Positions 6,294-62,520 of a DNA stretch of 64,000 bases are shown here, piece by piece. The notes under the pieces were generated by a model. The model saw nothing but the letters and a program-made list of their open reading frames with translations, was not told the DNA's origin and made no database searches. The stretch lies in the IMG/VR virus record IMGVR_UViG_3300025859_000003; one strand, 5' to 3'. The translations under genes were made by a program, and so were the position numbers. Numbering within the stretch: the first letter of the stretch is position 1; each line of letters starts with the position of its first letter. This DNA comes from a virus. Lineage: Duplodnaviria > Heunggongvirae > Uroviricota > Caudoviricetes.

Positions 6294-6294
6294 T

Positions 6295-6313
6295 GGCTAC
6301 AGAGTCTGCGACC
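6295..6313. repeat. degenerate copy of 21-bp palindrome (GGCTACAGAGTCTGCGACC)
   Basis: matches TGGCYGCAGAGTCTGCRGCCA family seen 10 more times. Confidence 0.6.
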
Positions 6314-6323
6314 ACAGCAGAAG

Positions 6324-9040: not shown

Positions 9041-10117
9041 ATGGGATTCAAAATTGACAGCATGGTGTGCATCCATCTCCCTCGGTGGAAACAGATCGCA
9101 TTCTTCTGCGGTCAGTGTGCCGGTACCGGGTTCTCCGGTACAGGAACTTGTTTCAAGTGTAACGGCTCTGGTATTCGCACAGAGAGGTTGCAGTACCTGG
9201 TCTTTGGCGGCGTGGCCAAGATTACAGGCTTGTTCTCCATCCAGGGACAGACCACGTACACCATCGTCTATCCGTTCCTGCAGGGACTTCTCGACCACTC
9301 CAAGCAGGACACTCAGCAGATCATGGATGTATCGTCCGCGTTCTGGGAGAAGAATAAGGACTCTCAACAGAAGAGCCCGCCTGGAACGGTCACGATGCAG
9401 ATTCCGGAAAGTCAGGTGTTCCACACCTACAACGAGGCCATCCAGAACCTCACCAAGTGCAACAAAGAGGTAATCGACGAAGGCATCCGCCGGCACGGTG
9501 GCGTTCCCGGTATCTTTGAGGAGAACCCGGAGAAGATCAAGCCGAACACGACATCCCGAACCGGCGGTACGCCGTACAGCGGTAAGCCGTATGGAGAGCC
9601 GCGGGTCAATGACTTGTTGTGGGCAGTCGAGTACCACGGCAATGTCCAGAAGTTCTTCCGGTGTCCGCAGTGCAAAGGCGAGGCCAAGAAGGCCAACGTC
9701 AAGTGCTCCAGGTGCCACGACTCAGGGCACATTGCGATGCACATCCCGCAGTACATCCTGAGGGGGCAGGTACGTGTTATCGGAACTATGTCCGGTGACT
9801 ACCTCGACCTTGAGGCAGCTCCGATTCCCTACGTGGATGACGACACCCACGCCCTGATCACCAAGAACTACTGGGTCAATCACGCCGAGGGCACGGACAA
9901 CCGCATCCCCAAGAACACGATTGCCACCTGGGAACATCTGTTCTACACGGTGGACGGGGCCAAAGAGTGGCTCGCCAAGAAGAACGAGACCATGCTCAGG
10001 CAGTGGTGCGAGGATCACCACGACATCCTCCCTGTGGGGATGGACGGCGAGGTTCTTGAAGGGTTCAAGCCCAAGGTCGGCCCCAAGCCCGTACCCATCG
10101 AAGCCTGCCTCTGCTAG
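9041..10117 (+). CDS. DnaJ-type CxxCxGxG zinc-finger protein, paralogue 4 (largest)
   Basis: RBS AGGAGAGAAC; CGQCAGTG ... CFKCNGSG N-terminally and second pair CPQCKGEA ... CSRCHDSG mid-protein. Confidence 0.6.
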   Translation: MGFKIDSMVCIHLPRWKQIAFFCGQCAGTGFSGTGTCFKCNGSGIRTERLQYLVFGGVAKITGLFSIQGQTTYTIVYPFLQGLLDHSKQDTQQIMDVSSAFWEKNKDSQQKSPPGTVTMQIPESQVFHTYNEAIQNLTKCNKEVIDEGIRRHGGVPGIFEENPEKIKPNTTSRTGGTPYSGKPYGEPRVNDLLWAVEYHGNVQKFFRCPQCKGEAKKANVKCSRCHDSGHIAMHIPQYILRGQVRVIGTMSGDYLDLEAAPIPYVDDDTHALITKNYWVNHAEGTDNRIPKNTIATWEHLFYTVDGAKEWLAKKNETMLRQWCEDHHDILPVGMDGEVLEGFKPKVGPKPVPIEACLC

Positions 10118-10125
10118 GAGGGACA

Positions 10126-10431
10126 ATGTGTTACTACCCGCCGAGGTTCCTGGAAGGGACCAGGGTTCGCGTTATCAGGCACGGCAGCGATCCAAAGTAC
10201 GCCAGGGAAGGCGTCGTCGTACAGATGTTCGGCGGCGCCACCTGTGGCGTGTTTGACGTAATCTTTGACGGCGACGACTACCGCTCTACGTGTTCGGAGT
10301 GGGACCGTGTGGAGAGGATCTATGAAAACGAAGAGAGGAAAGCCCCTCCCGAAAAAGAAGTACCCGAAGAATCTGAAGTGGATCTACGAAGTTTGCTACA
10401 GGATGCGTGGAGACGTCGAGGCGGAGCATAA
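10126..10431 (+). CDS. hypothetical protein
   Basis: RBS AGGAGGGACA then ATG; overlaps next ORF by 110 nt in a different frame. Confidence 0.4.
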   Translation: MCYYPPRFLEGTRVRVIRHGSDPKYAREGVVVQMFGGATCGVFDVIFDGDDYRSTCSEWDRVERIYENEERKAPPEKEVPEESEVDLRSLLQDAWRRRGGA

Positions 10432-10588
10432 GATCACCGAGATCATGAACTGCCAGTCAATCGAAGAGGTCAAGACGGCGTTCTACTCGACTCCACGCTT
10501 CAAGGGCATGACGTTGGCCAGCTGCCGCCGGCTGCGGAGGATGGTCCCCGAAGATCTTGAGAAACTTGAGGCCCCGGCAAGGCTGTGA
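10322..10588 (+). CDS. hypothetical basic protein
   Basis: Track ORF 10265..10588; ATG 10322 preceded by GGAGAGG. Confidence 0.4.
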   Translation: MKTKRGKPLPKKKYPKNLKWIYEVCYRMRGDVEAEHKITEIMNCQSIEEVKTAFYSTPRFKGMTLASCRRLRRMVPEDLEKLEAPARL

Positions 10589-10609
10589 TGGCTGCAGAGT
10601 CTGCGGCCA
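10589..10609. repeat. 21-bp palindrome copy TGGCTGCAGAGTCTGCGGCCA
   Basis: inverted repeat, PstI-like CTGCAG arms around GAGTC core. Confidence 0.7.
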
Positions 10610-10612
10610 CGA

Positions 10613-10645
10613 GAGAAGGGTGGTCGCTCAACCCTTCTCTTTTAG
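10613..10645. terminator. bidirectional intrinsic terminator between convergent genes
   Basis: GAGAAGGGT-loop-ACCCTTCTC followed by TTTTAG; stop of minus gene at 10642. Confidence 0.65.
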
Positions 10646-10881
10646 TACGTGAATTCACCCCGCTGCCGAGAACCCACCCAGGCGTCCCGAGCGTTACTCG
10701 CGTCCAAGGTCAGGTGGTACTCGTAACCGTCGTAATAGAACAGATCATGGTTCCGAAGAGCATAGACTCCAGTTTGAAGGTCCAGGAACGTGTCCACCTT
10801 CGGAAACGAATGCCCGAGCGCCTGCTCTCTGAGTATGTTCTGTACATAGTCTTCGAGCTGTTTTGACCAGTAGCATTTCAT
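10642..10881 (-). CDS. hypothetical protein
   Basis: 79-aa ORF. Confidence 0.45.
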   Translation of the reverse strand: MKCYWSKQLEDYVQNILREQALGHSFPKVDTFLDLQTGVYALRNHDLFYYDGYEYHLTLDASNARDAWVGSRQRGEFTY

Positions 10882-11183
10882 GTTCCCACCTTCTGGTTGG
10901 TCGGCTTATCGTTCTCATCCAGCCAGACGAACTCCCCGTTTTCTCCTACAGGGAAATAATTTCCACAGGAAGCGCAGAACGTCGACCCGTAAAATTCAGG
11001 ATTCAGTGCATAGGTCTCGGCAATCCTGACCCCCATTTTGGTGGTGCCACCGCACTTGAGATGTTGATACGCCGTCCGGATCGGACGCACGAACTTCTTA
11101 CCAGAAGGATCGACGGTAGGGTGGCTCTCGTACTGACCGTCGGGTCCCTTCTTACCGTAATCGAAAGGTTTGTCGTCAGACAT
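10878..11183 (-). CDS. small zinc-binding protein
   Basis: Track ORF 10878..11351; ATG at 11183 preceded by AGGAG; HLKCGG...CASCGNYF. Confidence 0.5.
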   Translation of the reverse strand: MSDDKPFDYGKKGPDGQYESHPTVDPSGKKFVRPIRTAYQHLKCGGTTKMGVRIAETYALNPEFYGSTFCASCGNYFPVGENGEFVWLDENDKPTNQKVGT

Positions 11184-11472
11184 TGGTACTACTCCTGTCC
11201 TGAAGCCACTGCTCTGTTTTGAGCTGAATAAGACGAAGCGCCCACATCGGATCCTTCCAGATGTCTTTGTACAACCACTGCCGCATCTTGGGAAAGTAGC
11301 GCTTGAGATCGTCACGAGCACCGTCGTATTGAGCCGCATACACCTTTGCATGATGAACGACGGTTTTCTGGTGAACCAAGGGTAGCCGTTCGAATCTCTT
11401 CTGTATGCGGTCCAGCCCCGAGGAGAACAGATCCAACGGAAATACCGACCTGAATTCTTCCCAGGGAGTCAT
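11176..11472 (-). CDS. hypothetical protein
   Basis: 98-aa ORF, 8-nt overlap with downstream gene. Confidence 0.45.
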   Translation of the reverse strand: MTPWEEFRSVFPLDLFSSGLDRIQKRFERLPLVHQKTVVHHAKVYAAQYDGARDDLKRYFPKMRQWLYKDIWKDPMWALRLIQLKTEQWLQDRSSTNV

Positions 11473-11954
11473 GCTGTGTTTCCTTTTCTGATGTCGGTTT
11501 TAGGGGCTCTACCAGGAATGAGCTTGAGGATAGGATCCCCGGTCTCGTCAAGGGGGACAGACCTGTTCTGCTTGCGCTGGCGTCCAAGCTTGATACCGGT
11601 CAGGTAGCGTTCGCTGAGCTCCGATCCCTTCATAAGGTGCTTGAGCTCGTCCATGGACTCAGGCTCAAACAGCAGGAAAAGGTTGGCCTTCTGGCCGGTG
11701 GACGCCCCGGTACGATTCACACGCCGAATCAGCCCCAGCTTCTCAAGTTCGGCAGACCATTCCCTCACCGTGCTCATACTTCGTCCGCACAGCTTTGCCA
11801 AGGTTCTCACAGAGGGGTGGCGATGCTCGCCTTTGAACCCGCCGTAGCTGGCGATCACCGTGTACAGGAACTTCCACTCCAAAGGTATAGGCAGGATGAT
11901 CAGCCACTTCGGCATCGTCGAGTAGGGCGTGGAGGGAAGATCTACTGATTGCAT
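11469..11954 (-). CDS. winged-helix/HTH DNA-binding protein
   Basis: Track ORF 11469..12002, likely start MQSVDL at 11954; HPSVRTLAKLCGRSMSTVREWSAELEKLGLIRR resembles HTH recognition segment; sits beside palindrome-rich non-coding hub. Confidence 0.5.
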   Translation of the reverse strand: MQSVDLPSTPYSTMPKWLIILPIPLEWKFLYTVIASYGGFKGEHRHPSVRTLAKLCGRSMSTVREWSAELEKLGLIRRVNRTGASTGQKANLFLLFEPESMDELKHLMKGSELSERYLTGIKLGRQRKQNRSVPLDETGDPILKLIPGRAPKTDIRKGNTA

Positions 11955-12002
11955 AAGAAAAGCTCCCGGAGCAGGCGTCGTTCTTTGGCGAAGAAGACAC
12001 AT

Positions 12003-12634
12003 ACACGGGAGCTTTAGCCGTTTGGGCCATACTCATAGTACGTGTCTTCTTCGCCGAGAACAACCCTACTCCGGCGAGAATTTTATGTCAAGAACGTATG
12101 GAGAAAAGCGTGCATCCCCCACCGGTGTATCGGCGGGGGACCCCCACCGGTGTACGCTACCCCTATAAGTAATACTAACTGCTAACCATCCCCCTACAGG
12201 GGATGGAAGTAACTGTACCAGTTACTTCCATCCCGCTCCCCCAGCGGCTGCGCCGCTGTGGTCGTCGGACGAGCTAAAAAGAAAAGGGTACTTTTACTTG
12301 ATCGCCTTAGCGGCGTAGGGTATACCACACCCGACGTACAGACCTCTGCCGATCTGTGCTTCATGTACTACCTTCCTTGTTTGAGTAAGACGGTCGAACT
12401 AACCTTCGGCCGTTTTGCTTTCAATGGGCCTACAACCCATCTGGCGTTCGATATGAGCAGCCTGAATGGCCGAAAGGTCTTCGGATACCCTAAGGTACCC
12501 GCCGAACGATCCTGGAGGCGTTTTATCGTAAAAAACAGGGGGTGGTTATGCTGGACCAAGGCCCACCCCCTGATTAGACGGTTTACCTGCGCCGCTCATT
12601 CGAGCCCACAGTCTCGGGCAGTCACGCAGGGCCG
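12003..12634. other. 630-bp non-coding regulatory hub
   Basis: No credible ORF; direct repeat CCCCCACCGGTGTA x2 (12116-12153); perfect 35-bp palindrome GGGATGGAAGTAACTG-TAC-CAGTTACTTCCATCCC (about 12202-12236) nested with CCATCCCC/GGGGATGG; 10-bp stem CAGGGGGTGG...CCACCCCCTG (about 12535-12570); possible sigma70-like TTGATC-17-TATACC near 12290-12320. Confidence 0.5.
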
Positions 12635-13057
12635 TCAGTCCCTGTCACTTGAAGACATCTGGTCGATTACGGTTTCGGCGCCCTCCGGAATGTTGTCGTT
12701 CGGCACCTCGACGTACTGGCCGTCTCGTACCTCGTACGTACTGTCGCCCTCCGCCTTATCCGGGTTTACTAACCTGATTGCCGGGCCGAGCCAGCCAAAG
12801 ATGCACTCCCCGTCGTCGGCCCTGAACCACATGACATCTCCGATGTCATCACCGCTTCTCCTGATTTTCTGGAGAAGAGTCACGGCTTCTTTTGAGATGC
12901 CGAGATGATTCTTGGTGTCTCGTACCAGGCAGCCGATCTTCGACCCACCGTTGGGGATGAAGAACTTCGTCCCACTCCAGTACTCTTCTGGCGTGTCGAT
13001 CACCAGTATCCCCTTGTACGAAAGCACTCTGATAAGCGGTTTGGTATCTTCCGTCAT
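12635..13057 (-). CDS. hypothetical protein
   Basis: 140-aa ORF; AAAGGAGA RBS; preceded by conserved motif. Confidence 0.5.
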   Translation of the reverse strand: MTEDTKPLIRVLSYKGILVIDTPEEYWSGTKFFIPNGGSKIGCLVRDTKNHLGISKEAVTLLQKIRRSGDDIGDVMWFRADDGECIFGWLGPAIRLVNPDKAEGDSTYEVRDGQYVEVPNDNIPEGAETVIDQMSSSDRD

Positions 13058-13087: not shown

Positions 13088-13108
13088 AGGCCGTATGTGG
13101 CTGCAGAC
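13088..13108. repeat. 21-bp palindrome copy
   Basis: TGGCTGCAGACTCTGCAGCCA. Confidence 0.7.
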
Positions 13109-13115
13109 TCTGCAG

Positions 13116-13148
13116 CCACGGCGGGACTAAAAAGAAAGCCCCCCGGTT
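13116..13148 (-). terminator. intrinsic terminator
   Basis: GCCCCCC-loop-GGGGGGC with TTTCTTTTT on minus strand, just past stop of 13166..14068. Confidence 0.65.
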
Positions 13149-13165
13149 AGAGGGGGCTGTTCTTC

Positions 13166-16163: not shown

Positions 16164-16652
16164 CCCTTTCTGTGGCTGCAGAGTCTGCGGCCATCGTTCC
16201 GGTCTTATGGTAAGGCCCACGTTATTCAGCCAGGTTTTGACCGTGATGTTGGACCCATCATGGTCGACGACCGCGAGGCCGGGGCTCACGATGCCCAGCT
16301 CCACGGTGCGGAGAACCGCCTCCTGCAGGGACTTGCTCGGAGGTGAATAACACCAACCGGAGTCGTATCCACTTAGACCATTGGCCCACCGGTAATAGAC
16401 CTGAGACCTCCCCTCGCTGTCACAATACCAGAGGTCGCGACCCCCCTGCATGTACTCGCGGCATTGGTAGTGACCGAGAAACTTACAGCAGACGCACCCT
16501 TTGAAGTGTTCAAACCGAGGTTTTCCCAGGATCACCTTTGGAGTAACCCCCATTACTTCTGCAAAGAGTTCAATCTCCCGGAGGCGTGCCTCGTAAAGAC
16601 CGCCGGGAGTCATTAGCTTCAGCAGTTCTTCTCTGTCCATTCTTTCCCCCAT
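16152..16652 (-). CDS. Cys-rich hypothetical protein
   Basis: 166-aa ORF; C-terminus reads through palindrome copy 16173-16193. Confidence 0.45.
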   Translation of the reverse strand: MGERMDREELLKLMTPGGLYEARLREIELFAEVMGVTPKVILGKPRFEHFKGCVCCKFLGHYQCREYMQGGRDLWYCDSEGRSQVYYRWANGLSGYDSGWCYSPPSKSLQEAVLRTVELGIVSPGLAVVDHDGSNITVKTWLNNVGLTIRPERWPQTLQPQKGAPA

Positions 16653-22536: not shown

Positions 22537-23118
22537 CTAGGGCTCTTCTCTGGGGTTGAATGCCGATAAGTCCAGTGCCTTCGGGTTGGTGAGTTCCTTG
22601 ATCCGCTGACCTAAGGCCTCAATGGCGGCAGCTTCAGGTTCCTCGTTCTCGTCGACGCCTTCAAGCATGGCCTCGTAGAGCTGGGCCTTCTCCTGGATGT
22701 ACAGCTCCCGGAAGTCCGGCTCCAGGGTCTCCACGTCCTGCAGGTTGTCCAGGACGTCGCAGCACTTCACGATCCTGGCGATCATCGGCGCCACCTTCAT
22801 CTTGCGGCACACCTCGTCCTTGCGCTCCATCCTGGAGCCGGTGTGCCACGATGGATCGGTCAAGAAGTAGATGTTGCGAGCGACAGCCCGGCTGAACTCC
22901 TTGACGATGATCTCGATGGTGGTGTTCCTGTCGTCCTCGACGGTATCGTGCAGCCAGGCCACGATCACACCAAACTCGCGGAGCTTGTGGTCCTTCAGGA
23001 ATCCTTCAACCATGGCGGCAACACGCTGAGGGTGAACGATGTATGGCGTCTTGCTGTTCTTGCGGAACTGACCTTCATGGGCCTTGGCCGCATACCTGGA
23101 AGCCTTTTCGATACTCAT
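22537..23118 (-). CDS. HD-domain (p)ppGpp hydrolase (small alarmone hydrolase, SpoT/Mesh1-like)
   Basis: AAKAHEGQFRKNSKTPYIVHPQRVA ... WLHDTVEDD ... CCDVLDNL matches RelA/SpoT hydrolase HD motifs (A..AH.GQ.R..G.PYI.HP..VA, LHDV.EDT, L.D.L.N). Confidence 0.7.
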   Translation of the reverse strand: MSIEKASRYAAKAHEGQFRKNSKTPYIVHPQRVAAMVEGFLKDHKLREFGVIVAWLHDTVEDDRNTTIEIIVKEFSRAVARNIYFLTDPSWHTGSRMERKDEVCRKMKVAPMIARIVKCCDVLDNLQDVETLEPDFRELYIQEKAQLYEAMLEGVDENEEPEAAAIEALGQRIKELTNPKALDLSAFNPREEP

Positions 23119-23130
23119 GTAAATCCTCCT

Positions 23131-23478
23131 CTATATCAATAGTGATCCAATTACTATTAGCAGCAGAGCAATCCCTCCTATTACTAGAGCCGGGCGACCA
23201 AAAATCCACCACCACCACCTAAAACTATGATCGTTGGTGTCGTCGGTGTACGGCTTATAAACCGGATGGGGTTCTATGGATTGATAGCCATTCATGTATC
23301 TAACGGCGGTCTTATGGCTAAACTCCCACTTATTCCCTCGCGAGTCGGTGTAATCCGGCCCCTTTGGACCAACAAATGCTTGGACAACGGCGAGGACGAC
23401 AAGGCCGATGAATAGCCAAAGGATACAAATGAAGAAAACTAATATAGCCCAAATAACTACTTTAGCTTCTGTAGACAT
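23131..23478 (-). CDS. membrane protein
   Basis: 115 aa, TM helices at both ends, WWWW motif. Confidence 0.5.
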   Translation of the reverse strand: MSTEAKVVIWAILVFFICILWLFIGLVVLAVVQAFVGPKGPDYTDSRGNKWEFSHKTAVRYMNGYQSIEPHPVYKPYTDDTNDHSFRWWWWIFGRPALVIGGIALLLIVIGSLLI

Positions 23479-23532
23479 GTAAGTCTTTCTCTACTTCCTT
23501 AGCTCGTAAAAAGGAGCCCCTGGGGGAGCTCC

Positions 23533-23739
23533 TTATAGCTGATAAGATATTCCATCGGACCTAACAACCCATACTTGTTTGATTGGAATAGGTGGACCCG
23601 AAGGAAAGCTCGAAGTCAGATTAACTGGCCGGAAACTGATTCCATAGCCAAGAGCCGCTTTGACAACAAGCATGTTACGTTTACGCTTTTGAAACCTGCA
23701 AAGACGAATTTCTCCTGGGGTTCTATCTGAAGAAGTCAT
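23533..23739 (-). CDS. small hypothetical protein
   Basis: 68-aa ORF. Confidence 0.3.
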   Translation of the reverse strand: MTSSDRTPGEIRLCRFQKRKRNMLVVKAALGYGISFRPVNLTSSFPSGPPIPIKQVWVVRSDGISYQL

Positions 23740-24232
23740 GCTCTGTTTCCTTGGCTTTTGTGTTGCGGATCACCTGTCGAATGAGTTCTTCCTCCAACTC
23801 CTGGTCGGTCATGCCCGCTATCTCTTCACGACGAACCTCTAGTTGTGACTTGATTTTTGGATCTTTTTTCATTGCGTCTTTAAGATCCTGATATGAGATA
23901 CCAGAAAGACCACGACGCATGAGCCCAATAGCTACTTCAATTGAAACACTTTCAACCAGTAACTCGTATACCCTGGTTTCCTTGGCCACGCGTCTAACTT
24001 TTTCCAGTTCTACCTGTCGAAAATCTTCGTCTTCGGAACTACCCGATAAGTTAACTTCTATCTTTTCTTCTCGTTCCTTTAACTGTTCATATGTTCGATT
24101 GTCCCGGCGTATGCGCTCTTCCACCTGTTTCGGACTTTCCGATGGTTGGGCATTCGATTCAAAACATGAACATAACACGGCTGACCCAGAACATAGCAAA
24201 ATAAGCAAAACCAACGTTTTCATGACGTTCAT
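23723..24232 (-). CDS. secreted/lipoprotein-like coiled-coil protein
   Basis: Track ORF to 24322; ATG 24232 (MNVMKTLVLLILLCSGSAVLCSC signal peptide with Cys) then charged coiled coil. Confidence 0.5.
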   Translation of the reverse strand: MNVMKTLVLLILLCSGSAVLCSCFESNAQPSESPKQVEERIRRDNRTYEQLKEREEKIEVNLSGSSEDEDFRQVELEKVRRVAKETRVYELLVESVSIEVAIGLMRRGLSGISYQDLKDAMKKDPKIKSQLEVRREEIAGMTDQELEEELIRQVIRNTKAKETEHDFFR

Positions 24233-24819
24233 GGTGCTGCCTCCTCGTCTTCCCAGTACTCCAACGGGTAATCCACGGAATCCCATCGGTAGGTTGCCCA
24301 GCCTTTGTCTGCGATCTTCCACCTTCTCCAGGCGCGTTCAGACGGCTCACGAGTCCACATATCTCCGCGGCGATCTACTTTGAACTGCCGTCGGTGGTAG
24401 TCTTCCACTACATAGCCGAGAGCAAGAAGCTCACAGACGTCCCGGTCTGTTGGTTCTCTGAGTGTTCCGGAGCGGCCCCATTTTTCTTTGGGATCGACAA
24501 CTACTTCCTTCTCGACAATCACCTCTTTCTCGATGACTACCGGCCTTTCGACAATCACCGGTTTCTCGATGATTACCGGCTTATCCACCGTTCGTTCAAC
24601 CGTCACCGTCTTCTCGACAATCACCGGTTTTTCGACGGTGACGACGGTGGGATTCCCTGGACCGATCTGGGTGTGGGATACCTCCGTTCTGTGGTCAACG
24701 CGCAGGAAAAGCAGTGCGATGATCACGACGAACATGGTGCTCATCAGCCCCATCCCGTAGAGGATGTATCGTTGCGATCCTTCCTTTGGAACAGCAGATC
24801 CATAAGGGATTGAACTCAT
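24229..24819 (-). CDS. TM protein with tandem EKPVIVE-type repeats
   Basis: N-terminal TM; repeats EKPVIVEKTVTVERTVDKPVIIEKPVIVERPVVIEKEVIVEKEVVV encoded by about 15-nt tandem DNA repeats (around 24480-24660). Confidence 0.5.
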   Translation of the reverse strand: MSSIPYGSAVPKEGSQRYILYGMGLMSTMFVVIIALLFLRVDHRTEVSHTQIGPGNPTVVTVEKPVIVEKTVTVERTVDKPVIIEKPVIVERPVVIEKEVIVEKEVVVDPKEKWGRSGTLREPTDRDVCELLALGYVVEDYHRRQFKVDRRGDMWTREPSERAWRRWKIADKGWATYRWDSVDYPLEYWEDEEAAP

Positions 24820-24894: not shown

Positions 24895-24915
24895 TGGCTG
24901 CAGAGTCTGCCGCCA
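24895..24915. repeat. 21-bp palindrome copy
   Basis: TGGCTGCAGAGTCTGCCGCCA. Confidence 0.65.
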
Positions 24916-26682: not shown

Positions 26683-26703
26683 TGGCTGCAGAGTCTGCAG
26701 CCA
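26683..26703. repeat. 21-bp palindrome copy
   Basis: TGGCTGCAGAGTCTGCAGCCA (perfect). Confidence 0.7.
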
Positions 26704-30040: not shown

Positions 30041-30061
30041 TGGCCGCAGACTCTGCAGCCA
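30041..30061. repeat. 21-bp palindrome copy in divergent intergenic region
   Basis: TGGCCGCAGACTCTGCAGCCA. Confidence 0.7.
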
Positions 30062-33794: not shown

Positions 33795-33878
33795 ATTTCG
33801 AGCAAGAAGAAAGCCGAGCTCGGGGCTCGGCTTTTGGACCAGTAAAAAGAAAGTCCCCTGCTACAGGGGGTCTTTCTT
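33795..33878 (-). terminator. two consecutive intrinsic terminator hairpins
   Basis: GACCCCCTGTAGCAGGGGAC+TTTCTTTTT and AGCCGAGCCCCGAGCTCGGCT+TTCTTCTT on minus strand. Confidence 0.6.
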
Positions 33879-33879
33879 T

Positions 33880-34338
33880 TTAGTACAGCTCGTCGAGATG
33901 GTCGCGGTGCTTGATGTAAGACTCGGTTCCATTGAGCCGGCGCTCCAGTTCCAGGATGGCTTTCCAGACGTCGGGAGTGTACGGGGGCAGGCGCTTCCGG
34001 TGGGATTCCTGGTGAACACGGAGGGATTCAAGTTCGATTCGAAGCTTGTTGTTTTCGGTGAGAAGCTCGTTGTTCTCGTTGACGAGGTCCTGTAGACGTT
34101 GCTGCTGAATCACCGCACCGCAGTAAGCGCAGAGGCTGTAGACCAGGTAGGCGAGCCAGGTCAGAGGCCACAGGTTGCTCAAGATGAACAGCGTCACGTG
34201 GGTGATGGGCTGCTTCTTGGTCCACTCGGCCAGATCCTTGCGGAACCAGATGTTGGTGAAGGTGAAGATGATCAGGTGAGCGAACAACCCGACAAAGATC
34301 AGCGTACCGGTGTCGGTGTTCTGAAAGTAACGCTCCAT
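33880..34338 (-). CDS. membrane protein with C-terminal coiled coil
   Basis: 152 aa, 3 TM helices. Confidence 0.5.
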   Translation of the reverse strand: MERYFQNTDTGTLIFVGLFAHLIIFTFTNIWFRKDLAEWTKKQPITHVTLFILSNLWPLTWLAYLVYSLCAYCGAVIQQQRLQDLVNENNELLTENNKLRIELESLRVHQESHRKRLPPYTPDVWKAILELERRLNGTESYIKHRDHLDELY

Positions 34339-37599: not shown

Positions 37600-37620
37600 T
37601 GGCTGCAGAGTCTGCAACCA
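37600..37620. repeat. 21-bp palindrome copy
   Basis: TGGCTGCAGAGTCTGCAACCA. Confidence 0.65.
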
Positions 37621-44038: not shown

Positions 44039-44093
44039 GGCGGCTCCTAAAATTTTTCCGCCTAATGCGGATCATCGTCTTAGGCCCTAAAAA

Positions 44094-44118
44094 GAAAGGG
44101 CTCTGGGAGCCCTTTCTG
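44094..44118 (-). terminator. intrinsic terminator
   Basis: GGGCTCCCAGAGCCC + TTTCTTTTT on minus strand. Confidence 0.6.
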
Positions 44119-44139
44119 TGGCTGCAGACTCTGCGGCCA
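44119..44139. repeat. 21-bp palindrome copy
   Basis: TGGCTGCAGACTCTGCGGCCA. Confidence 0.7.
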
Positions 44140-46837: not shown

Positions 46838-46858
46838 TGGCCGCAGAGTCTGCAGCCA
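46838..46858. repeat. 21-bp palindrome copy
   Basis: TGGCCGCAGAGTCTGCAGCCA. Confidence 0.7.
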
Positions 46859-51803: not shown

Positions 51804-51830
51804 CGTGTCCTTTCTGGTTGTGGTCGCAGA

Positions 51831-51851
51831 CTCTGCGGCCATACTGTTTAC
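51831..51851. repeat. 21-bp palindrome copy (degenerate) in divergent junction
   Basis: TGGTCGCAGACTCTGCGGCCA. Confidence 0.6.
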
Positions 51852-62264: not shown

Positions 62265-62487
62265 CGGGAAGGAACACGGGTGGATTTTCTATACTTGAGA
62301 TAATGGGAGATACTGCCTGTTTGCATTGCCGGTTACGAGGACCGCGGCCTGATCAGGTACAAGTACTGGATCAAGGTGGTCGGCAATGCTACCGGCGTCG
62401 ATGAGTTCAGCCTGGGCACTAAAACCGGTTCCGGTGACACTTCCAACGGTATCAACGGCTGTGTAGGACAGAAGATTCCATAACTAA

Positions 62488-62520
62488 AAAGAAAGCCCCC
62501 GAAGGGGCCTTCTTTACTTG
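62488..62520. terminator. bidirectional intrinsic terminator
   Basis: AAAAAGAAAGCCCCC-GAA-GGGGCCTTCTTTACTT. Confidence 0.65.

Follow-up and report, generated by a model that had tools for sequence, protein, structure and literature searches.

The window analyzed here is the whole 64,000-nucleotide (nt) stretch of IMG/VR record IMGVR_UViG_3300025859_000003, a very orphan, phage-like genome with a GC content of 55%. The element in question is a noncoding gap at positions 12003-12634 together with the helix-turn-helix (HTH) gene at 11469-11954; we refer to the noncoding region in front of such an HTH gene as its hub. Minus-strand genes flank the gap on both sides, which places it 3' of the gene at 12635-13057 and 5' of the HTH gene. 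The original prediction had likewise placed the gap upstream of the HTH gene and near a strand switch, but that switch is a convergent junction at approximately 11.2 kb, two genes beyond the hub and not at the hub itself. The gap consists of two joined parts, the terminator of the preceding gene and a 570-nt cassette (12523 down to 11955) that belongs to the HTH gene. The features of the locus are as follows.

12530-12575, minus strand: intrinsic terminator of the gene at 12635-13057, with a stem of 12572-12563 and 12545-12536, a 17-nt loop, and UUUUUU at 12535-12530
12262-12523, minus strand: spacer S1, a lineage-specific conserved noncoding segment with hairpins at 12483-12500 and ~12424-12440, a Shine-Dalgarno (SD) sequence plus ATG at 12364, and a T-rich tract at 12273-12300
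12242-12258, minus strand: GC hairpin, CAGCGGC-GCA-GCCGCUG
12200-12234, no strand assigned: perfect palindrome with 16-bp arms GGGATGGAAGTAACTG and CAGTTACTTCCATCCC and a 3-nt center at 12216-12218 (GTA on the minus strand)
12186-12206, minus strand: second hairpin, CCAUCCCC-UGUAG-GGGGAUGG, with arms at 12186-12193 and 12199-12206 (CCATCCCC and GGGGATGG)
12116-12129 and 12141-12154, no strand assigned: tandem sites, two copies of CCCCCACCGGTGTA (TACACCGGTGGGGG on the minus strand), 14 bp each
12063-12091, minus strand: sigma70-like promoter, TTGACA (12091-12086), 17 nt, TAGGGT (12068-12063), with a predicted start at ~12056
11987-12055, minus strand: leader stem 1, an 18-bp stem of 12055-12038 and 12004-11987 with a 33-nt loop, starting at the predicted mRNA 5' end
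12015-12006 and 11968-11959, minus strand: complement between the loop and the ribosome-binding site (RBS), AAAGCUCCCG being perfectly complementary to CGGGAGCUUU over 10 nt
11469-11954, minus strand: HTH gene, encoding a 161-amino-acid winged-helix protein with an HTH_36 domain, a C-terminal EPESxDELK…IKLGRxPK segment, and a disordered basic tail
11176-11472, minus strand: gene for a 98-amino-acid protein, translationally coupled to the HTH gene through an ATGA overlap, the final gene ahead of the convergent junction, without conservation in the other loci

The repeats and palindromes that had been listed for the gap are all present and exceed chance, with slight corrections to some coordinates. 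The best perfect inverted repeat measures 16 bp and the best direct repeat 14 bp, whereas 500 dinucleotide-preserving shuffles of 12003-12634 gave no more than 11 bp for either. The motif CCCCCACCGGTGTA does occur twice; instead of the 24-bp spacing claimed for it, its copies lie 25 bp apart from start to start with 11 nt between them, the second copy ends at 12154, and each carries the 8-bp palindrome CACCGGTG. The motif is confined to the hub in the 64-kb window, as is the corresponding motif in 15.6 kb of the related locus L003, and elsewhere in the 64 kb, CACCGGTGGGGG and the palindrome arm have only weak matches that contain mismatches. These tandem 14-bp sites at 12116-12154 are predicted to be bound by the HTH protein and would form an iteron- or operator-like array. 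The perfect palindrome with its 16-bp arms was found at the corrected position of 12200-12234 and is a candidate for an extruded hairpin or cruciform. The overlapping inverted repeat CCATCCCC and GGGGATGG is also there, at 12186-12193 and 12199-12206; the second hairpin that it forms re-uses the outer end of the palindrome 3' arm, which makes it either an alternative pairing or a third half-site. The GC hairpin had been overlooked. Its tip on the minus strand reads GCGCAGC (12253 to 12247), a GCGNAGC-type DNA mini-hairpin motif.

An exhaustive HMMER search with the HTH protein found only 52 relatives among 1.8 billion representatives, 4 of them full-length (147 to 162 amino acids, 32 to 41% identity) and sharing the C-terminal EPESxDELK…IKLGRxPK segment with the window protein. 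The lineages compared below are the window and L001, L003, L005, L006, and L014. The only close relative of the locus is L001, a 1370-bp Logan contig that is 98.9% identical from 12523 to 11466. Upstream, L001 carries a different small gene with its own terminator, and homology begins just past the window terminator, at 12523. Because the edge of homology falls directly after the terminator, we place the boundary of a mobile module there and assign the other 570 nt to the HTH gene. No close DNA or protein relatives were found among the INPHARED phages for the proteins tested, in IMG/VR by protein search or with DNA motifs of the palindrome and repeats, or among the GTDB genomes. A single match in a JGI metagenome (L002) was dropped as a 28-residue fragment, and a tblastn search of plasmids returned weak, uninformative HTH-only matches to unannotated Bacillus plasmid genes.

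All of the full-length relatives' genes are preceded by a noncoding hub: 630 to 714 bp in L003 and in L004, which is identical to L003, 303 bp in L005, at least 278 bp in L006, and at least 387 bp in L014. These hubs have no sequence in common with the window hub, yet their parts are ordered alike.

GC hairpin with a 3- to 4-nt loop: window 12242-12258; L003 GCGCC-GATA-GGCGC; L014 …GCGC-GAA-GCGC…; L005 CCCCGC-GAA-GCGGGG
Perfect or near-perfect palindrome with 15- to 16-bp arms and a 3- to 4-nt loop, 2 to 9 nt after the GC hairpin: window, L003, L005, and L014, with the counterparts L003 9626-9659 (15+4+15), L014 88-122 (16+3+16, loop GTA), and L005 ~719-752 (16/15+3)
Short hairpin in which the outer end of the palindrome 3' arm pairs with a downstream copy: window, L003, L005, and L014, with the counterparts L003 CCCTTTAC-CCTC-GTAAAGGG, L014 AGCCCC-AGA-GGGGCT, and L005 741-750 with 756-765
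Two or three tandem dyad sites of 14 to 19 bp with a period of 24 to 26 bp, 45 to 63 nt after the short hairpin: all five lineages, with three GGGGACAn5TGTCCCC at period 24 in L003, three CGGCAATn3ATTGCCG at period 24 in L005, two ACGTCATnnATGACGT at period 26 in L006, and two GGACAGATCTGTCC at period 24 in L014
Sigma70-like promoter at approximately -135/-112 from the ATG: window TTGACA-17-TAGGGT; L003 TTGACG-17-TATGTT (called by the promoter scan); L006 TTGATC-17-TACCAT
Stem of 16 to 20 bp beginning at most 3 nt from the predicted start: window, L003, and L006
Loop segment complementary at or next to the SD sequence: window and L003, weaker in L006, and in variant form in L014

The sequences of the dyad sites are different in every lineage, and the genes 3' of the HTH gene are nonhomologous between loci. 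The settings vary as well: L003 and L005 sit at a divergent junction by structural genes, and the window, L006, and L014 loci at the end of an operon. Since the layout is kept while downstream genes and settings vary, the hub and the HTH gene together are the unit that is conserved and mobile. Cousins of the protein with 184 amino acids and an HTH_36 domain lie inside operons of ~19-kb phage contigs with no upstream hub, and the hub is therefore specific to the 160-amino-acid subfamily. What is notable in these loci is a layout conserved without conservation of sequence, together with mini-hairpin tips held on a fixed strand; iteron-type modules that combine an origin with a rep gene are already known as such.

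In a perfect palindrome, asymmetry is confined to the loop. Read on the gene-sense strand, each of the eight twin-hairpin loops fits G(N)NA: those of the GC hairpin and the palindrome are GCA and GTA in the window, GAA and GTA in L014, GAA and GAA in L005, and GATA and GTCA in L003. The tip of the GC hairpin is an exact GCGNAGC in three of the four (GCGCAGC in the window and GCGAAGC in L014 and L005), and it is CCGATAGG in L003. Mini-hairpins of the GCGNAGC/GCGNNAGC type have extraordinary stability in DNA form, far above that in RNA form, and the motif recurs at the G4/St-1 priming origins, in RSF1010 ssiA, and in the N4 hairpin promoters (PMC13037366). By this analogy, the G(N)NA and GCGNAGC tips favor, without proving, a DNA-level and strand-specific role of the twin hairpins. 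As a separate observation on the hub sequences, GTAC is approximately 3-fold enriched both in the window hub at 11955-12523 (7 sites versus ~2 expected) and in L005 691-993 (5 versus ~1.3 expected); the L003, L006, and L014 hubs show no such enrichment. Another concerns TAACCATCCCCCT (12183-12197, beside the palindrome), which is nearly the same as TAACCACCCCCT, the reverse complement of the terminator stem (12535-12548); this likeness may be due to chance, and L001 does not have this terminator.

As judged by profiles, predicted fold, and relatives, the HTH protein is initiator-like. Its gene starts at the ATG at 11954 behind the SD sequence GGGAG, and the product matches Pfam HTH_36 with an E value of 8.5e-9 and, weakly, GntR and MarR entries in Pfam and PDB. 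Of its 13 PHROG matches, 12 have a replication annotation (initiation protein, O-like, DnaD-like loader), and the longer relatives contain HTH_36 in two or three copies, along with weak matches to RepL, Phage_rep_O, DnaD_N, and RP-C. The AlphaFold (AF2) model, with a pLDDT of 74, predicts a confident winged helix at residues 11 to 100, a short helix at 101 to 107, and then the disordered basic tail. The top four Foldseek matches of this model are N-terminal domains of RepA_N plasmid initiators, including a Rep-DNA complex (5kbj, 4pql, 4pt7, and 4pta), at 14 to 16% identity, and among the viral models of BFVD, the matches named for a function are replication protein O or replication initiators. 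In pPR9, the HTH_36 N-terminal domain is the origin-binding part of a functional initiator (PMC5703833).

The proximal 140 nt are well supported as the promoter and translation-limiting structured leader of the HTH gene, because the geometry is conserved, the mismatches are wobble pairs, and the pairings stand out in shuffle tests. The minus-strand promoter was read from the sequence and lies below the threshold of the scan, with only three of six matches in its -10 hexamer; the original prediction had missed it, as well as the inverted repeat of the leader stem (11987-12004 and 12038-12055, extendable to arms of ~47 bp) and the loop-to-RBS complement. It had proposed a plausible rightward promoter instead. 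The hexamers TTGATC (12300-12305) and TATACC (12323-12328) are indeed present on the plus strand at a distance of 17 nt, but the site is weak, its -10 hexamer lacks the last T, and it is weaker than the leftward promoter, which points into the HTH gene. As the consensus scan did not call it and its position is not conserved in other lineages, we rejected it. In the leader, the scan called no promoter-like or terminator-like sites on the plus strand, and only weak candidates were seen by eye.

The leader folds at -51.6 kcal/mol (z-score, -5.4). The window and L001 differ at 12001-12002, and each retains 18 of 18 stem pairs by means of one minus-strand G.U pair; L003 and L006 have two stem 1 mismatches each, and all six across the lineages are G.U pairs on the sense strand. 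On these substitutions, the leader stem reads as RNA on the gene strand. The segment CGGGAGCUUU contains the SD sequence GGGAG, 4 nt before the ATG of the HTH gene, and the 10-nt complement between it and the loop was reached in 3 of 3000 shuffles. The 13-nt complement between loop and tail in L003 was reached in none of 3000, that of L006 was weaker, and L014 has a variant anti-SD/SD pair at 328-339 and 373-384. The pairing could be a pseudoknot or an RBS-sequestering contact, and pairing of the SD sequence would inhibit translation. Elsewhere in the window, the motif ACGGCCTAAGAAGgtg lies ~25 to 45 nt upstream of many start codons, often right after the T-run of a terminator (minus strand, 13094, 16137, 17384, 17827, 18510, 22522, 24866, 27202, 30037, 33794, 44088, and 51197; plus strand, 6368). 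This motif probably serves as a promoter or leader element specific to the phage and is missing from the HTH gene, which has the sigma70-like promoter instead.

We tentatively read the cassette as a portable module of an origin of replication plus its initiator with translational gating, a reading we consider plausible while stopping short of calling it probable; that the protein binds the repeats and that the cassette acts in replication are both inferred. Dimers of the 161-amino-acid winged-helix protein would bind the tandem dyad sites and distort the DNA, in the way that lambda O acts on its iterons and RepA_N proteins on Rep boxes. The adjoining palindrome and GC hairpin would form very stable DNA hairpins capped by G(N)NA, extruded from the gene-sense strand, and these might mark the site or keep it open for priming or helicase entry, in the manner of single-strand initiation (ssi) and G4-type signals. 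The supply of initiator would be kept low and regulated by the long 5'-terminal mRNA stem and by pairing of the loop segment with the region of the RBS. This reading fits both the restriction of the sites to the hub and the modular mobility of the unit. A more specific form of it is speculative and, in our judgment, unlikely to hold in full: a minimal phage replicon with a single winged helix, no effector domain, and two or three dyad sites, in which twin, extraordinarily stable G(N)NA hairpins, extruded on one strand as the signal for entry or priming, replace the AT-rich unwinding element and initiator synthesis is gated by a leader with a 5'-terminal stem and pseudoknot, the whole moving as a unit between unrelated backbones, from ~23-kb contigs to genomes of more than 64 kb. 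The original prediction had offered an origin or partition site beside an initiator-like HTH protein as one of three candidate roles, and the origin is the best supported of them, on the strength of the initiator-like protein and the conserved layout; for a partition site, no partner genes were found among the neighbors scanned.

Several observations weigh against an origin at this site. There is no AT-rich unwinding element: the lowest GC content over 40 bp in 11940-12660 is 0.42 (approximately the 5th percentile of the window), AT-rich runs in this interval reach only 23 to 30 bp, and the GC content of the hub is 0.51 to 0.57 in all lineages. In all five hubs, DnaA boxes (TTWTNCACA with 1 mismatch) and the IHF consensus occur at or below shuffle expectation, and scans for DnaA, IHF, and GATC gave nothing consistent across lineages. 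L003 and L005 have three repeats, and the window, L006, and L014 have just two, with a period of 24 to 26 bp throughout; lambda-type repressor operators, too, are arranged as tandem dyads with a period of ~24 bp. The protein has no second Pfam, NCBIfam, or PHROG domain and no match to the Pfam family Phage_rep_O; it is predicted to have no folded effector domain for recruitment of a helicase or primase, residues 120 to 161 being predicted as disordered, and MarR-type regulators follow the initiator domains only ~10-fold behind in Foldseek E value. The hub is far from the recognizable DNA metabolism genes at 35 to 41 kb, and the layout comparison covers five lineages, two of them on short contigs. 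Finally, the minimum of the cumulative GC skew lies elsewhere, at ~51 to 52 kb, an outcome that the original prediction had named as a refutation, and the maximum (~10 to 11 kb) is beside the hub; we give the skew little weight as an origin marker because it tracks gene orientation.

Repeats of GGTGATTGTCGA at 24.5 kb were considered as an alternative origin and rejected, as their 18-nt (six-codon) period in an open reading frame (ORF) identifies them as a coding repeat; the tandem array spans 24494-24642, with units like TTCTCGACAATCACCGGT that encode a six-residue repeat and are not iterons. The lowest-GC island of the window, at 23100-24300 (46% over 1 kb, with 40-bp windows down to 25%), holds genes with an atypically low GC content at third codon positions and is possibly foreign DNA or a regulatory or origin region.

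The cassette resembles several characterized replicons in part. The lambda origin has four 18-bp iterons within 87 bp at a period of ~23 bp (PMC3349717). Like the lambda origin with its O protein, the cassette combines an initiator-type winged helix that has O-like profile matches with tandem dyad-symmetric sites, at a period of 24 to 26 bp here versus ~23 bp, and the sites travel with the protein. Unlike lambda, it has its sites upstream of the gene and not inside it, in two or three copies versus four, it has no 38-bp AT-rich segment, and its protein is approximately half the size of O and has no C-terminal partner-binding domain. The RepA_N replicons (pSK41 and pTZ2162) supply the best structural neighbors of the model, and RepA_N proteins are dimeric winged helices that act on short repeat arrays, the Rep boxes. 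The rep mRNA leader of pPR9 is ~100 nt long, and its structure controls access to the RBS (PMC5703833); structured rep leaders that sequester the RBS are standard in plasmid replicons (PMC5703833 and PMC10724649). The leader here is likewise ~100 nt long and structured, as in RepA_N-type and pPR9 rep mRNA. In contrast, the Rep protein of pSK41 has a primase-binding C-terminal domain, its origin lies inside rep, and its antisense RNA is mapped, whereas no antisense promoter was found at our locus.

RSF1010 oriV and the G4 ssi signals also combine an iteron array with nearby stable hairpins that end in mini-hairpin tips, namely, CCGAAGG in RSF1010 ssiA and GCGAAAGC in G4 (PMC13037366), compared with GCGCAGC, GCGAAGC, and CCGATAGG here. 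However, RSF1010 has GC-rich and AT-rich segments and needs the plasmid-encoded RepA helicase and RepB' primase, neither of which was seen by the cassette; likewise, no gene for a primase or N4-like polymerase was seen beside it. In the rep mRNAs of the I-complex (IncI, IncB, and IncK) and IncL/M plasmids, the loop of a 5' stem-loop pairs near the RBS of the initiator, as here. The I-complex pseudoknot differs in that it activates translation, needs a leader peptide, and is blocked by the antisense RNAI (literature cited through PMC10724649), whereas the loop here pairs with the SD sequence itself (in the window), and neither a conserved leader peptide nor an evident antisense RNA is present.

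As the main alternative, the cassette might serve an autoregulated transcription factor, with the HTH protein as a repressor- or activator-like phage regulator, the dyad sites as its operators, and no role in replication; the palindrome and the X'-X repeat would then be further operators or a partner site, and the leader would keep expression low. We take this reading seriously but think it unlikely. It explains the dyad sites (14 to 19 bp, two or three copies, period of 24 to 26 bp, upstream of the protein's own promoter in every lineage) equally as well as an origin does, and it suits hubs without an unwinding element or DnaA boxes. A single winged helix with a short tail has the size of a regulator and not of a typical initiator, MarR-, GntR-, and ROK-type regulators make up most of the Foldseek list, and the weak Pfam and PDB matches to GntR and MarR point the same way. 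The L003 and L005 hubs also lie between divergent transcription units, like an immunity region, and copies of the palindrome arm motif of L005 (CnTACTCCGT) recur by a putative promoter. The two or three dyad sites seen here, their period of ~24 bp, and their position beside the gene for the expected binder match the arrangement of the lambda operators OR1-3 and OL1-3. On the other hand, the sites here lie off the promoter, there is no second set, and the protein has no recognizable oligomerization or cleavage domain. None of them overlaps the promoter of the HTH gene, the nearest site center lying 35 bp (window) to ~80 to 88 bp (L003, L006, and L005) upstream of the center of the -35 hexamer. 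The 64 kb of the window and the 15.6 kb of L003 hold no other operator copies, which would leave self-regulation only. Accordingly, the master regulatory region that had been suggested for the gap holds as far as local promoter and leader control go and not as master regulation, the sites being found only in the hub. Autoregulation also leaves the variable distance of the sites from the promoter, the lack of other operator sets, the strand-specific G(N)NA/GCGNAGC tips, and the perfect 35-bp palindrome unaccounted for, the annotated profile matches and the best fold matches are initiators, and no integrase, lysogeny genes, or repressor-type domains lie near any copy among the neighbors scanned.

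A reading at the RNA level, which we judge improbable, would make the whole 570 nt a long structured leader or an independent gene-strand noncoding RNA, with the twin and repeat-derived hairpins serving the processing, stability, or attenuation of the HTH mRNA. Folding of the minus strand gives -259 kcal/mol (z-score, -9.2), but the plus strand folds nearly as well (z-score, -8.9), as expected of DNA palindromes, and S1 alone scores only -0.96. Substitutions between the window and L001 in predicted stems all keep minus-strand pairing, including one compensatory double change, and the strand with the wobble pairs is consistently the sense strand. A hairpin of 9 to 17 bp followed by CUUUUCU can arise at the second tandem site, and the last L005 site was called terminator-like. 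Against this, the GNA triloops and GCGNAGC tips are hallmarks of stability in DNA and not in RNA, the tandem sites change along with the protein, as protein-binding sites do, no promoter was found upstream of the twin hairpins, and L003 and L005 have no codirectional upstream operon. No Rfam family (Rfam 15) matched at the gathering threshold in the 64 kb, and at E values up to 10, the segment 11900-12700 gave only spurious microRNA and small nucleolar RNA hairpins. A match to a known Rfam element had been named as one possible refutation, and it did not materialize; the structured antisense RNA proposed among the candidate roles is not supported either, as no antisense promoter was found and the wobble pairs and loop motifs are all on the gene strand. 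Some other DNA-level site (a pac or cos site with a small-terminase-like HTH protein, a partition centromere, a telomere resolution site, or att) is highly improbable. A long palindrome beside a gene recalls protelomerase targets, and small terminases and centromere-binding proteins of ~150 to 180 amino acids have N-terminal (winged) HTH domains and bind repeat arrays by their own genes. For packaging, however, a gene for a 157-amino-acid protein on the other strand of L003 precedes and overlaps that for the large terminase and so fills the small-terminase slot, and the structural genes of the window are far off, at 52 to 62 kb. Resolution of telomeres is at odds with a palindrome center of 3 to 4 nt that is not self-complementary. 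The 3- to 4-nt loops are too small for rolling-circle nick sites, the family alignment of the protein shows no conserved HUH/Tyr motifs, and the neighbors scanned have no ParA/ParM-type partner and no protelomerase, integrase, or recombinase domain. A tRNA or attP-like fragment in the gap was rejected, as the 64-kb window has no tRNAs.

That the gap is decayed or miscalled coding DNA, with a frameshifted gene or a small leader peptide gene, is scarcely credible. Codon usage log-odds trained on 26 long window genes stayed at or below ~0.2 in all six frames across 12003-12634, compared with 0.3 to 0.57 in the flanking genes, and every ORF in the gap scored negative, which bears out the earlier statement that 12003-12634 holds no credible ORF. 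The best case for a coding reading is a 56-codon minus-strand ORF at 12194-12364, which a strong SD sequence, AAGGAAGG, opens 6 nt from the ATG at 12364. This ORF spans the palindrome as well as the GC hairpin, ends within the second hairpin's loop, and scores -0.09 per codon; L001 cuts it by an in-frame change of CAG to TAG at codon 39, no comparable ORF exists in L003, and the hub is noncoding in every lineage. The missed frameshifted gene that had been named as a refutation was thus not found.

Hardly any uncultivated phage has a known origin of replication, and annotation tools do not detect such sites. If the origin-plus-initiator reading is correct, such a cassette could be searched for by its layout instead of by sequence, natural GCGNAGC-type DNA mini-hairpins would be kept at a fixed place and strand across divergent genomes, and an origin could be built without an AT-rich unwinding element. 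If the cassette serves only an autoregulated regulator, an unusually large gap in a compact phage genome is still resolved into terminator, promoter, and leader, and the comparison also shows that an architecture can persist where sequence does not.

At the distal end of the gap, 12530-12575 is a plain intrinsic terminator of the upstream minus-strand gene. Its stem is 10 bp when perfect and 13 bp when extended (CAGGGGGTGG at 12536-12545 and CCACCCCCTG at 12563-12572), it folds at -25.3 kcal/mol (z-score, -3.2), and it lies ~60 nt past the stop codon of 12635-13057; the terminator scan, with its loop limit of 8 nt, did not call this 17-nt-loop structure. The perfect 10-bp stem had been noticed before and counted as part of the hub structure, where it does not belong, being the terminator of the preceding gene. 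The pairing of CCTTCGGCC with GGCCGAAAGG that had been described is present at ~12404-12414 and 12465-12479. Spacer S1 is ~98 to 99% identical in L001, has no fixed counterpart in the other lineages and no coding signal, and is not unusually structured by its z-score of -0.96. Between the window and L001, it shows one compensatory double change (12486/12497, U-A to C-G) and one change of U.G to U-A (12429). Many genes of the window end in a GC hairpin followed by the tail CTTTCTTTTTAG (13127-13158, 33843-33882, 44076-44101, and 62484-62505, as well as L001 274-306); this tail also occurs at 12273-12285 on the minus strand in the gap, there without a GC stem.

In the window as a whole, few proteins have family matches, and these are tail-like proteins, an AAA ATPase related to jumbo-phage ATPases, a dCTP deaminase, and an exonuclease. 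Among the related loci, the ~23-kb phage contig L003 has the HTH gene and three small genes (62, 98, and 155 amino acids) at 10001-11413, which alone oppose the structural, tail, and lysis genes; the 98-amino-acid product has a weak match to a "D5-like" regulator PHROG, and no polymerase or helicase was seen in the 15.6 kb covered. L014, the ENA contig ERZ24842424, carries the P0003 homologue and is labeled as part of a Planctomycetota bin, which is the only host hint for the family. A 21-bp palindrome, TGGCYGCAGASTCTGCRGCCA, that is absent from the gap occurs 11 times in the 64 kb (6294-6314, 10589-10609, 13098-13118, 16173-16193, 24895-24915, 26683-26703, 30041-30061, 37600-37620, 44119-44139, 46838-46858, and 51821-51841), usually right after a stop codon and before a terminator. 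Its possible roles are those of an operator acting genome-wide, a hairpin for RNA processing or stability, and a signal specific to the phage.

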